A stretch of 64,000 bases of DNA, taken from positions 2,850 to 66,849 of the forward strand of contig CAVZHG010000014.1 of the NCBI GenBank assembly GCA_963775035.1. Direction: 5' to 3'. Below, piece by piece: positions 58,777 through 64,000 of the stretch. Below the pieces are notes generated by a model. The model did no database searches. It was not told where the DNA came from and was given only the letters and a program-made list of their open reading frames with translations. Source of the stretch: an uncultured Alphaproteobacteria bacterium (GTDB taxonomy: Bacteria > Pseudomonadota > Alphaproteobacteria > Rhizobiales > Hyphomicrobiaceae). The position numbers and the translations under genes were made by a program. Positions within the stretch are counted from its first letter, which is position 1; each line of letters begins with the position of its first letter.

Positions 58777-60254
58777 CTAGTTCTGGCCGAGGCGCCGCAG
58801 CCCTTCACGCGCCAGCGCGTTGTTGGCATCGATCTGCAGGGCCTGGCGGAAATCGGCAGATCGCCTGAGCGTTCGCCCGCCGCTGCAAGTGCGACAGCCC
58901 CCGCGCGACGTAGATATCCGCATCCCGGACATTGGCCGCGATTGCCTGGCTGAAATCCGCGATCGCCGGCCCGTGATCGCCTTTGCGCGAGTGGGCGAGC
59001 CCCCGCAGCCGCAGCGCCATGCCGTTGCGCGCCTCGCGACGGATGGCCTCGTTGAGATCGGTGATCGCGGTATCGAACTGACCGGCGCGCAGGCTGTCGA
59101 GCCCGCGCTGGAGCAGCGCCGGAACGTCGAGCGACGCGGCAGGCGTTCCGGTGGCCGGCGTCTGCCCTTGCGGCGCGTCGATCTGGCTGCGCAGGGCCAG
59201 CGCGGCGGCGTGGTTGGGATCGATCCGCAGCACGTCGGCGATGTCGGCGAGCGCGCGCGGGCGATCGCCGAGCTGGTTGCGCAGCATCGCCCGCTGGACC
59301 AGCACCGCCGCATTGGTCCGCTCGTTGGCGAGGATGGCGTCGAGGTCGGTGATGGCGCGCTGGACCTGGCCCTGCCGCACGAGCAGCGCCGCCCGCTGCT
59401 GCAAGGTCGCCGTATCCTGCGGCGACGTATCGAGAACGGTCGCGAGGTCCTGCAGCGCATTCGTCATATCGTTGCGCAACGCGTGGAGGCGGCTGCGCTC
59501 GCGGAGCGCCGCGGCGGGCTCGGACCTGAGGCTGATCATTTCGGTCACGTCGGTGATCGCGCGCTCGACGTCGCCCTGCTGCTCGTAGGCGCGGGCGCGC
59601 TCGGCGAGCGCTGCATCGTTGCGCGGATTGAGGCGGATCGCCTGTGTCAGATCGGAGATCAATTCGATGATGCGGCCCCGCGCCCGCTCAACGGCGGCGC
59701 GGTTCATGTAGGCGCGCACCAGCACGTCGCGCGGCACCCGGCGGATCTCGATGACGCGGCTGCAGGCGCGCAGCGAACGTGTCGCTATTGGCCGGCGTGC
59801 AGTCGACCATCTCGATGGGAATGCCGTCGGTCTGCGGCGCGGCAGGCGGGCGGGTGTGGTCGCTCGGCGTCTGCTGCGTCGCGACTGGCGCCGGGCCGGT
59901 CGATCGGCGCGGCGGTCGGTGCGGGGCCGATGCCGCCCGATGTCCCCTGCGGGGGCGCGCCTTGGGCCGGGCGCGCGGCTTGCGGCTGAGCCGGAGCACC
60001 CACGCCGGGTTGAGCGGGCGCCTGGGCACCGGCTGGGCCGGCGTTTGGCCGGCATCGGGCTGGGCTGCGGGCCGGCGCGGCGACGGCAGCGCGCGCTGCG
60101 GCCGCTGCTGTGCCGGTGGCGCGGCCTGGCCGGGTTGCGTCTGCTGTTGCGGCTGTTGCTGCTGCTGCTGCGCACCCTGCGCCGATGCCGGATCTGGCGA
60201 CAACGTCAGTCCAATGGCCACAATCGAGATCGAAGCAATCGCCAGTGAACGCAT
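58777..60254 (-). CDS. Secreted tetratricopeptide-repeat protein with a Gln/Pro-rich N-terminus (frameshifted)
   Basis: Signal peptide; repeated AI.D...AI..NP TPR patterns. Confidence 0.8.
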
Positions 60255-60563
60255 GTCATCCCTCGGATGCTATGAAATAATCGGGTCCGCGGCCGGTCGC
60301 GAAAATATATCACACGACAGCAACGCTTGCCGAGGTCTCCCTCGTCAACCGCTTAATGCCGGGCGATCACGCGCCGCGCCCGCGGCGCCAGCACAATCAC
60401 TGCCGGTACGCCCGGGCGGACAGCTCCGCCACCCGCCACCATCCTATATGGAGCCGCCGCGGCATCGGAAAAGATGCACGCCGTTCAGATCGTCGATAAC
60501 TATTCGGTGAAACGCAGACCGCAGTTGCCGACTCGCGGCCGCTGCTCCTTGAGGAAACGGCCA

Positions 60564-60989
60564 TCACATCTTTTCGTAGCGCAGCTTCGTCATCCCGATC
60601 TGCACCATATCGCCCGACCGCAGGACCTGCTCCTTGGTCACGCGGCTGCCATTGACCTCGATCGGATTGGCCTTGCCGCCGTCGAGAATCCGCACCTCGC
60701 GGTCGCCGCAGTCGATCACCGCGTGCTGATGGCGCGAGATGGCATTGTCGCCGAAGTCCAGCGAGACGATGTTGTCGGTATAGCGCCCGATCGAGTTGGT
60801 CCCCTTGTAGACCGACCGCACGGTACCGAGCCCGGGACCCTCGATGATGGTGAGCCGCCCGATCGGCGGGCCAGCGCTCGCAAGCTGCACCTGCGTCGGC
60901 ACATCGTCGAGATTGGCGCTCGACCGCGGGCCGCCCGGCGTGCCCTTGGTCGGTATGTGGATAGTCTGGCTCTTGTCCTTATCGTTCAT
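60564..60989 (-). CDS. FHA-domain protein
   Basis: IGR...D.AISR.HA...NPIEVNG...L.SGD.V.IG. Confidence 0.85.
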   Translation of the reverse strand: MNDKDKSQTIHIPTKGTPGGPRSSANLDDVPTQVQLASAGPPIGRLTIIEGPGLGTVRSVYKGTNSIGRYTDNIVSLDFGDNAISRHQHAVIDCGDREVRILDGGKANPIEVNGSRVTKEQVLRSGDMVQIGMTKLRYEKM

Positions 60990-61047
60990 GCCAACCCACT
61001 CCTGTGGCCTGTCTCATTTCCTGAAATGGCGCGATGACCGACCGGCT

Positions 61048-61564
61048 TCAAGCCGCTTTCAGCCATAGCGTGAAACTGACGCCGCCGAGCGAGACGATGT
61101 CGCCGTCCTGGAGGTTCGCGTGCTCGCGCGTCACACCGTTGACCTGCATCGGATTGGGCTCGGAGCGCACCGCCGTCAGATTGTGGATCTCGAAGCCGCC
61201 GTCGCGGCGCGCGACAAGGCGAGCGTGATGCCGGCTGACGCGCACGTCCCGCACCTGGATATCGTCCTCGCTGTGACGCCCGATGACGACTTCGGGCCGC
61301 ATGATCGTGACCCGCCCGGGTTCGCCCTCGAATTCGAGGATCGCAAGGCTGCTGGTGTCGGATCCGCTCGACCCCGATGCATGCCGGTCACGCCGCCGGT
61401 TGGCGCCGTCCCCGATGGCAGAGGCAGCTTCATCGTGCCGCCGGTGGCAGCGGACGGCCCGCTCGCGGCGGCTTCTCGCGCTACGCCGCACGGTTGCGCA
61501 CGATCCAATACCCGATGCCCGCACCCAGCACGGCGATCAAGACGATGAGGACCCAATCGCGCAT
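61048..61564 (-). CDS. Membrane-anchored FHA-domain protein (frameshifted)
   Basis: N-terminal WVLIVLIAVLGAGIGYWIV; IGR..EDDI...VSRHHA...NG...LQDGD. Confidence 0.75.
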
Positions 61565-61712
61565 GTGCTGCTCGAGCTTTGCCGGTCTACGATCCGATGA
61601 CGGCCACGTCCCAATTCGGTCGAATACCATGGGTTTTGCGGCCGCTGCACCCTCAATCTAGCGATCCAAGCGCCTGGAATCAACGCGATCGCCTCGACAA
61701 CTTTGCTCGCCA

Positions 61713-61742
61713 TTGACTTTTCGACTCCGCCTTCATCATGTT
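61713..61742 (+). promoter_or_regulatory. Candidate sigma70 promoter of the argC leader
   Basis: TTGACT at 61713-61718 and a weak -10 near 61736-61742, placing the start site near the ATG at 61750. Confidence 0.45.
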
Positions 61743-61749
61743 CCGACCC

Positions 61750-61812
61750 ATGGAAAACGGATTAACCCTCGTCCGACGCTTTCGTGCCCGCGCTTGCGCA
61801 CGGCTGCGATGA
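61750..61812 (+). CDS. Putative Arg-rich leader peptide MENGLTLVRRFRARACARLR
   Basis: 20 codons with 6 Arg; stop codon lies in the 5' strand of a predicted antiterminator; alternative in-frame ATG at 61738. Confidence 0.65.
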   Translation: MENGLTLVRRFRARACARLR

Positions 61813-61844
61813 CGGGTTGCTGACTGCTACAGCCCGTTTGTCGC

Positions 61845-61872
61845 AAGCCGCGCCTGAAACGCGGCTTTTTTT
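61845..61872 (+). terminator. Intrinsic terminator (attenuator) in the argC leader
   Basis: AAGCCGCG-CCTGAAA-CGCGGCTT followed by a T7 run, about 85 nt before argC. Confidence 0.8.
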
Positions 61873-61957
61873 GCGTCTCCGCGACGATCCGGACCGCAAA
61901 GAACAGCCACCGACCGGCGCCACCCATGCCAATGATTTTGACGACGAGACATCCGCC

Positions 61958-62952
61958 ATGACGAGCACAGCCGACATTTCACTCAGCAAATCCGCCAAGC
62001 CTGCCGGCCTCAAGGGCGCGGTCCCGACCGTTTTCATCGATGGTGAAGCGGGCACGACCGGCCTCGAAATCCGCCAGCGGCTGGCGAATGCCACCGGCCT
62101 CCAGGTCCGGTCGATCGATGCTGAACGGCGCAAGGATTCGGCCGCGCGCAAAGCCTTGATGGCCGAGGTCGATGTCGTGGTGCTGTGCCTGCCCGATGAC
62201 GCCGCGCGCGAGGCGGTGGCGCTCGCCGACAGCCTCGGCGCCGATAGCCCCCGCATCATCGACGCCTCGACCGCGCATCGGGTCGCCCCGGGCTGGACCT
62301 ACGGTTTCCCGGAGATGACCGCGGGCCACGCAGCAGCCGTCGCCAAGATCGCGGCGCGTCACCAATCCCGGCTGCTATCCGACCGGCGCCATCGCGCTGC
62401 TGCGCCCGCTGGTCGAGACCGGGCTGATGCCGGCGGACTTTCCCGTCACCGTCAACGCGGTCTCCGGCTATTCCGGCGGCGGCAAGTCGATGATCCAGTC
62501 CCACGAGAGCGGCACGGCGCCGGCATTCGAGCTCTACGGGCTCGCGCTCGAGCACAAGCACGTCCCCGAGCTGCAGCTCTACAGCAAGCTCACCCGGCGG
62601 CCGATCTTCGTGCCCTCGGTCGGCAACTTCTACAAGGGGATGCTGATCAGCATCCCGCTGCATCTCGATACCCTGCCGGGCAAGCCGATCGCGCGGGACC
62701 TCGAGACGGCGCTGATGCGCCACTATGCCGGCGGCGGGCTCGTCGAAGTCGTTGCCGCCGCCGACCCGTCCGCCAAGGGCGGCCGGCTGGAGCCGGAGGC
62801 GCTGAACGGCACCAATCAGCTGGAGCTGCGGGTGTTTGCCCATCCCGCAGCAGCCGCAGGCGGTGCTGGTCGCGCGGCTGGACAATCTCGGCAAGGGCGC
62901 GTCCGGCGCCGCGGTCCAGAACCTCGGCCTGATGCTCGGAATGGTGATTTAG
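61958..62952 (+). CDS. argC: N-acetyl-gamma-glutamyl-phosphate reductase, type 2 (frameshifted)
   Basis: [56 protein letters not shown]. Confidence 0.92.
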
Positions 62953-63079
62953 AGCTTGATCGTTTGAGATGCGAGCGCTGGCGCGCGCATCGAGAGCGTC
63001 AAATCAAACTCTAAAACAAAAGCTAAGAGCGCGTTCGCACCAGTTGGCCTGATTCCAATAGCACGCGAACGTGCTCTAA
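62949..63079. repeat. RIME/MITE-like double-hairpin element
   Basis: TTAGAGCTTGAT...ATCAAACTCTAA, linker AACAAAAG, AGAGCGCGTTCGC...GCGAACGTGCTCT. Confidence 0.65.
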
Positions 63080-63972
63080 AAGGCCGTCGACGGCCGGTCG
63101 TTGTGGCCGATCGGCGGCGCGCTGGCGCGCTGCACCGGGTGCGACCGGGGCATCGCGGCGTTGGAGCCGCTCCTTCACCGCCGCCGCCATCAGCTCGGCG
63201 AGACAGCCGTAGGACAGATCGTTGAGGTGGAACTTGTCCTTCCACAGAAACTTGTCGACCGAATGCTGGCCGCTGGCGATCAGATACTTCATGATCGCGT
63301 AGCGACGGAACACCGGAACGCGATGCTGCCTCTGCGATGGTGTGCATCGTCGTGACGATATTTCTCGTAGTGCGGAACCGACGTCGAGCGCGGATAGAAC
63401 TGCGGATCGATCAGCACGACCTCGATATTCGCCGCCTTGAGCGAGGCAATGCCCGGCTTCGAGCGTCAACCTGGTAGGCTTCAGGTCGACGCCGCTGATG
63501 ACGTCGTTGACCCCGGTCTGCCACAGCACCAGCGCCGGCCGCTGCGGGATCACGTCGCGCTGCAGCCGCACCAGCATATGGTCGGCAAGCTCTCCGCCCC
63601 GGCCGAGATTGATGACCTGAAAATCCTTGCCGGGGTAGAGCCGGTCCATTTCGCGGTCGAAGCGCTCGGGATAGGCCGCCTGCCTGTTCGACGCCCCGTG
63701 CCTTCGGTCGACGAGGAGCCGATCGCGATGACGCGGATGACGCGGTTGTGCTCGATCGCCTGGGCGAGTCCGGTCAAGCGGGGGGCTGAAACGCAACCAG
63801 CGCGTTCGGGACGGTGCAGGGCACCCGATCGTTCAGATCCTGCGCTGTCGCGGCCGACGGCGCCAGCCCGGCCATGGCGCCGACGACGGCGAGCGCAAAT
63901 CGCAGCCGGCCGGGATTGCCTGCGAAACACGGCGAAATCCATCCGGAGCGGAGCGCCTACTCGGCCCCGCAT
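63023..63972 (-). CDS. SGNH/GDSL-family hydrolase (frameshifted, ends uncertain)
   Basis: AIGSSSTEG, INLGRGGE, WQTGVND, DKFHLND. Confidence 0.75.
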
Positions 63973-64000
63973 CCAAATTCGAGCACAGCATCGTTCGCCC

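Follow-up and report, generated by a model that had tools for sequence, protein, structure and literature searches.

The argC gene in the window, by which we mean the whole 64,000-nucleotide stretch analysed here, is preceded by a leader that very probably acts as a ribosome-mediated attenuator of the trp/his type and senses charged Arg-tRNA. Comparison of sequences and folding models together point to a small regulon under this control, made up of argC here and of argD, with or without argF, in relatives. Alignment showed a conserved order of promoter box, short ORF rich in Arg and CGA codons, terminator hairpin and arginine gene. The element is real and conserved. Its predicted mechanism is known from textbooks, but no description of it for arginine synthesis was found in the literature searched.

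The leader lies on the forward strand and starts with the -35 box of a predicted promoter, TTGACT, at positions 61713 to 61718. The first-pass annotation had pointed to this box, and every one of the 79 distinct copies of the leader has TTGAC 35 to 39 nt 5' of its ATG, a feature on which the covariance model described below was itself trained. A sigma-70 promoter scan called no promoters, the TTGACT box included, and the promoter assignment therefore rests on conservation. The predicted -10 element occupies 61737 to 61742, with its spacing read from the sequence, and its CAT (61737-61739) was invariant in all 32 aligned leaders. We infer from this arrangement that transcription starts at the A of the ATG of the upstream ORF (uORF) at 61750, yielding a leaderless mRNA. 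Six sequencing runs considered for transcript evidence each contained at most 0.05 of the sequence words or were not indexed, and the four that were compared with the leader, one of raw reads giving no sequence at all, yielded no usable evidence. A 224-nt contig (about 90% identity to 61648-61873) was rejected, as it starts upstream of the promoter and its run is marked as probably DNA.

The uORF (61750 to 61812) comprises 20 codons, from the ATG at 61750 to a TGA stop at 61810-61812, and contains the six Arg codons, two of them CGA, that had been reported. These are codons 9, 10, 12, 14, 18 and 20, at 61774 (CGA), 61777, 61783, 61789, 61801 and 61807 (CGA). Conservation and the footprint walk described below mark codons 9, 10 and 12 (CGA CGC x CGT, 61774 to 61785) as the predicted sensing codons. 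Folding placed the 5' arm of a predicted antiterminator, termed region 2, at 61798 to 61819, a stretch that includes the terminal CGA codon together with the stop; on its outer side, positions 61798-61805 imitate the 3' arm of the terminator. The predicted 3' arm follows at 61830 to 61853, and its segment 61846-61853, region 3, is common to the antiterminator and the terminator.

An intrinsic terminator-like hairpin followed by seven T residues was called by the terminator search at 61845 to 61872 (stem 61845-61867, T-run to 61872), exactly where the first-pass annotation had drawn it, and its core pairs are conserved. Two terminator-like sites were found in 1.5 kb compared to 1.3 in shuffled sequences, so that, taken by itself, the window's terminator could be a chance occurrence. 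The long stem that had been proposed to compete with it (61798-61819 with 61830-61853) was recovered as the minimum-energy fold, and none of 200 shuffles of 61795-61855 folded equally well (z -3.87). Only the outer 5 to 7 bp of this stem compete with the terminator; the inner 14 bp or so are compatible with it. Across the 3.2-Mb assembly, 779 short ORFs were promoter-like and leaderless, and a terminator-like hairpin stood behind five of them. Two of these five were Arg-rich: the argC leader, and one other whose U-run is poor and for which the search showed no downstream gene.

Alignment of argC upstream regions, a comparison proposed at the outset, showed that the uORF and its Arg codons are conserved in relatives. 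Within the window's genus, each of the 14 argC loci, that of the window among them, has the same layout, as do 4 of 10 argC loci from other genera of the family and 18 of 80 GTDB loci (14 of them new), an Alsobacter and a Beijerinckiaceae record included. A covariance model was built from the 32 aligned argC leaders and holds the terminator pairs only. Matches at E<=1e-5 occurred in 59 of 150 genomes of the window's family, and 83 full-length matches (E<=1.2e-8) in 51 of the 150. Forty-seven of the 83 lay within 300 nt 5' of short-form argC (TIGR01851), at least 11 of these being sequences on which the model was trained. Another 28 precede argD (acetylornithine aminotransferase), 26 over the NCBIfam cut-off and two frameshifted; because the model was built only from argC leaders, the argD copies are independent of its training. 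Frames resembling argF were seen behind argD in loci inspected by eye. Four matches precede the other ArgC clade (TIGR01850), three precede genes not known as arg genes (PF04299, GNAT, and cupin plus LysE) and one is at a contig end. Where a downstream gene was visible, it was thus argC or argD in 79 of 82 copies, a count of related copies that are not independent of one another.

Outside the family, four genomes of family f21 have the leader before long-form argC, two of these loci having been included in the profile scan, and one further genome (G080) also carries it. Among 149 genomes drawn from the whole class, three that belong to other orders have full-length copies, each preceding argC. 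A Bradyrhizobiaceae-like version stands before a PF04299 gene that is followed by argC. The leader is not general in the order, an idea that we rejected: besides five found earlier, it was present in only 1 of 140 argC upstream regions fetched (142 listed), and its distribution is patchy. The same 140 regions contained an rpsI-end motif in 64 cases and a speB-like motif in 18. Most order-wide model matches at E>1e-7, and the weak matches in the window's own genome, were likewise discarded as generic terminators.

The anatomy of the leader peptide was assessed in the 79 distinct copies (81 alignment rows), 77 of which were analysable for folding. The reading frame, 18 to 28 codons long, was intact in every copy. 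Arg codons made up 30% of the uORF but only 16 of 428 codons in the N-terminal part, and they peaked at positions -12 to -9 relative to the stop (71 of 79 at -11), at -3 (65 of 79) and at -1 (77 of 79). CGA was present 10 to 14 codons before the stop in 75 copies and was the last codon in 73. It accounted for 187 of 484 uORF Arg codons, compared to 6.8% in 550 long genomic ORFs (a crude gene filter), although these codon frequencies are partly circular because the covariance model learned them. Codons -4 and -3 are usually GCG CGG, a copy of the terminator 3' arm that can pair with its 5' arm. N-terminal amino-acid entropy was 3.6 to 3.8 bits, and entropy exceeded 3 bits at most positions, indicating that the peptide varies freely. 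Within the genus, the single-base differences in codons 2 to 16 were evenly divided, 16 being synonymous and 16 non-synonymous, against an expected synonymous share of 24-30%. This synonymous excess supports translation of the uORF.

We propose the following mechanism. Transcription would start at the uORF ATG and a ribosome would load directly on the leaderless RNA. When Arg-tRNA is scarce, the ribosome would stall at the CGA-led cluster 10 to 12 codons ahead of the stop. The final codons would then be exposed and could pair with the terminator 5' arm before synthesis of its 3' arm, and polymerase would continue into argC. When arginine is ample, the ribosome would reach the last codons and the stop and cover region 2; the terminator would then form at about 61870 and keep argC off. 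The rare, wobble-read CGA probably tunes the sensitivity of this switch, and the leader as a whole would stand in for the ArgR repressor.

The effect of ribosome position was predicted by a footprint walk, in which RNA under the ribosome was masked and the remainder folded, using a footprint of 13 nt and also of 10 and 16 nt. For the window's leader, the terminator probability at 13 nt was 0.01 to 0.12 when codons 9-10 occupied the A site and 0.96 to 1.0 when codon 14, 18, 20 or the stop did. The comparative checks suggested in the first-pass annotation all came out in favour of its stalling logic, but the six Arg codons are not equivalent, as codons 14, 18 and 20 are predicted to favour the terminator. 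Because a ribosome at the last Arg codons is predicted to let the terminator form, the model assigns these codons to the switch and not to the sensor. Among the 32 training leaders, at a footprint of 13 nt, the 2:3 helix had P>0.5 in 29 to 32 for A sites from -12 to -9, and no leader retained it once the A site had reached -5. The boundary held for footprints of 10 to 16 nt, shifting by one codon at 10 or 16 nt. Of 77 copies, 73 had region 3 paired upstream at P>0.5 when the ribosome occupied the Arg cluster, and 76 had the terminator at P>0.5 when it occupied the stop. The first CGA was 20 to 26 nt from the core of region 2 in the 27 leaders, out of 32, for which this distance could be measured. 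Copies of f21 and Bradyrhizobiaceae-like type rebuild the 2:3 helix in other registers and yield the same predicted switch, the 'stop' pairing values of the f21 copies being noisy as the metric counted local pairs.

Pairing in the terminator was preserved throughout, with core pairs kept in all 81 rows and double changes in 2 of 5 pairs. Covariation, which had been suggested as a check, was weak in the antiterminator, because the three arms are nearly invariant. Double-change pairs in the antiterminator numbered 3 compared to 4.3 in column shuffles, which is no excess, and RNAalifold recovered only the terminator from the leader alignment. In an arm-swap test on 15 dereplicated leaders, the cognate antiterminator arms outperformed those taken from other leaders in 11, and just 2 leaders had them in the top 10%. 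When the last six codons were recoded synonymously, median 2:3 pairing fell modestly, from 0.85 to 0.70, the observed sequence scoring higher in 58 of 77 copies. A variable-sequence inner stem, compatible with the terminator, joins region 2 and the terminator 5' arm. Equilibrium folding with the ribosome placed on the Arg cluster nevertheless favours the terminator in 48 of 77 copies, and most copies would therefore need co-transcriptional kinetics. Kinetic switching is usual for attenuators. Naked RNA favoured the terminator in 58 of 77 copies, the window's own not being among them (P 0.04).

In architecture, these properties match a trp/his-type attenuator. A uORF rich in codons for the end product lies directly before biosynthetic genes, and a hairpin with a U-run (by sequence and predicted structure) separates the uORF from the first gene. 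The predicted antiterminator is mutually exclusive with the terminator and has its 5' arm under the uORF end; in the footprint walk, a stalled ribosome freed region 2 and a ribosome at the stop covered it. The enterobacterial trpL, hisL, leuL, thrL and pheL and the trpL of Sinorhizobium meliloti share with the argC leader a uORF with cognate codons, an antiterminator over the uORF end, an intrinsic terminator and a biosynthetic gene. The S. meliloti trpL is documented as leaderless, as we predict for the argC leader (passages of PMC10117765). The argC leader differs from these classical systems in that its cognate amino acid is arginine, in having the rare CGA both lead the cluster and end the ORF, in being copied before two unlinked operons, and in that no 1:2 protector helix was predicted for the window's copy.

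Other known leaders resemble it in part. When placed in Salmonella hisL, CGA caused strong de-attenuation (passages of PMC4046918), and by analogy slow CGA decoding fits a sensitising role in the argC leader. The cysS attenuator candidate uORFC-8-2 of Rhodobacterales was likewise predicted by comparative analysis as an alphaproteobacterial ribosome-mediated attenuator; set beside the argC leader by its description, it differs in using Cys codons and in preceding a tRNA synthetase gene (excerpts of PMC8632094). The Salmonella speF leader orf34/SpeFL similarly has a uORF with consecutive Arg codons that senses arginine by ribosome pausing, but it is 34 codons long, contains a conserved domain, works by way of Rho, unfolding of the RBS and RNase G, and has ornithine decarboxylase as its target (parts of PMC6386406). 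A comparison with SpeFL had been called for, and the argC leader is not of that type: in place of a conserved peptide of about 34 residues before speF working through Rho and RNase G, it has a variable ORF of 16 to 28 codons, an intrinsic terminator and the arginine-synthesis genes argC or argD downstream. Rare Arg codons also sense arginine limitation in the leader peptide rbfL of Staphylococcus aureus; there, however, the codons are AGA/AGG, the RBS is occluded, starvation represses, and the target is a biofilm regulator (parts of PMC13009471).

Searches of Rfam 15, covering T-boxes, riboswitches, the alphaproteobacterial speF leader and leader-peptide families, gave no match at gathering score: window positions 60000 to 64000 had six weak matches, all far below gathering, and eight homologous loci had none. 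The first-pass annotation knew of no described Arg-codon attenuator on argC, and no arginine-biosynthesis attenuator was found in the literature searched; subscription attenuator-prediction papers and most supplements fell outside its scope and could hold one. In the portions of text available, argC is not mentioned in PMC10117765, PMC13285730 or PMC8632094 (including one supplement of the last), and the passages on arginine and attenuation in PMC13646844 are unrelated.

Arginine synthesis is a standard example of control by a repressor, ArgR. The ArgR regulon has the same target pathway as the argC leader but acts through a DNA-binding protein, which is reported to be conserved in gammaproteobacteria and absent from other proteobacterial classes (sections of PMC5343134). 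Consistent with this, the check for argR that had been recommended found no ArgR (PF01316) in 151 genomes of the order, where the same search was positive in 9 of 14 controls; a search of this kind would miss an AraC-type regulator. That ArgR was not found in these genomes raises the question of how the bacteria regulate arginine synthesis, and the leader offers an easily tested answer for part of the group. It would extend classical attenuation to arginine, with a rare codon as a tuning device, and the covariance model can flag arginine-linked genes of unknown role. Versions of the leader occur in named Nitrobacter, Alsobacter and Hyphomicrobiaceae records, so laboratory tests look feasible.

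Other explanations were weighed against an attenuator that reads charged Arg-tRNA. Arrest at the end of a leader by arginine or ornithine is described for SpeFL and for the fungal AAP. Free arginine (or ornithine) might similarly arrest the ribosome here at the last Arg codon and the stop; high arginine would then hold it on region 2 and allow the terminator to form. The frequency of Arg (77 of 79) and CGA (73 of 79) at the last codon speaks for such a sensor, and the four f21 copies retain the last CGA even though their predicted antiterminator starts at the stop codon, with the CGA outside it. We nevertheless regard this explanation as unlikely, since neither the sequence of the peptide (mostly above 3 bits) nor its length (16-28 codons) is conserved beyond Arg, copies of Bradyrhizobiaceae type end in Arg-Ala or Arg-Val, and the CGA-UGA of the main family is base-paired within the inner stem as well, which can explain the conservation of CGA.

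It is very unlikely that the leader reports translation speed or tRNA modification more than arginine, with CGA registering slow decoding through tRNA-Arg ICG supply, A34 deamination, growth rate or ribosome stress. The strong enrichment of CGA in the uORFs and its slowing of ribosomes in Salmonella hisL constructs (passages of PMC4046918) would suit such a sensor, but 79 of 82 copies precede argC or argD, the CGA codons are accompanied by CGC and CGT, and three divergent copies rely chiefly on runs of CGC. An RNA element independent of translation, such as a riboswitch, a protein-binding site or a constitutive sRNA terminator, would reduce the ORF to a by-product of GC-rich sequence. CGN codons are indeed common in GC-rich DNA, and the pairing requires GCGCGG in region 2, a sequence that imposes Ala-Arg codons. 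Against this, the spacing between the -35 box and the ATG is fixed, all 79 copies keep an intact frame although their lengths differ, the uORF shows a synonymous excess, the leader alignment revealed no conserved structure 5' of region 2, and Rfam gave no match; we consider such an element extremely improbable.

Within the attenuator reading, the near-invariant last CGA is not needed by a simple model. We tentatively suggest, as a possibility that we think doubtful, a design in which the first CGA cluster senses Arg-tRNA and the CGA-stop is a second selected pause; the cassette would have been copied before argC, argD and a replacement argC in place of ArgR, and would mark PF04299 (PaiB-like), GNAT and cupin/LysE genes as members of the arginine pathway. 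The CGA-stop would park the ribosome on the antiterminator arm until the slowly initiated leaderless mRNA terminates. Such a design is not described for attenuators.

The window's argC (61958 to 62952, forward strand) is of the short form (TIGR01851) by profile match. Compared with its closest relative, G007, it is broken into pieces by two single-base insertions, near 62345 and 62850. These are likely assembly errors, because the assembly is 56% complete and argJ is also split. The argJ gene (G000:C28:361772-362966) is frameshifted in a similar manner and nearby ORFs look broken, probably owing to long-read indel errors. Both argJ and argG were found in the window's own genome, with no covariance-model match near either, and argD, argF and argB gave nothing over the cut-off in this assembly.

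Several further loci were recorded. PF04299 (FMN_bind_2, PaiB-like) is the first gene behind the leader in L068 (1752-2480), L269 (770-1531) and L325 (1139-1834, reverse strand), followed by argC in L068 and L269, which suggests a link of this family to arginine or polyamine metabolism. A full-length leader also precedes a GNAT acetyltransferase, possibly an N-acetylglutamate synthase (L310:1360-1818, reverse strand), and a cupin and LysE translocator pair (L299:429-1367, forward strand). In L073 and L082, a different and longer Arg leader (34 and 38 codons) lies about 210 nt 5' of argC, with a CGA-led Arg run, TTGAC at the same distance and an unrelated strong terminator; it is possibly an independent solution to the same control. 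The argD leader of L329 (G217:C56:16412-16550) keeps the promoter box and terminator with no ATG at the usual distance, and is possibly a decayed attenuator. Four family genomes (L305, L314, L316 and L322) have, apart from short-form argC, a second, divergent long-form argC with its own leader copy, a pair that is possibly mobile. In the window, two small FHA-domain genes (60564-61524, reverse strand) are divergent from the argC leader; at their position, most relatives in the genus have the end of another gene.
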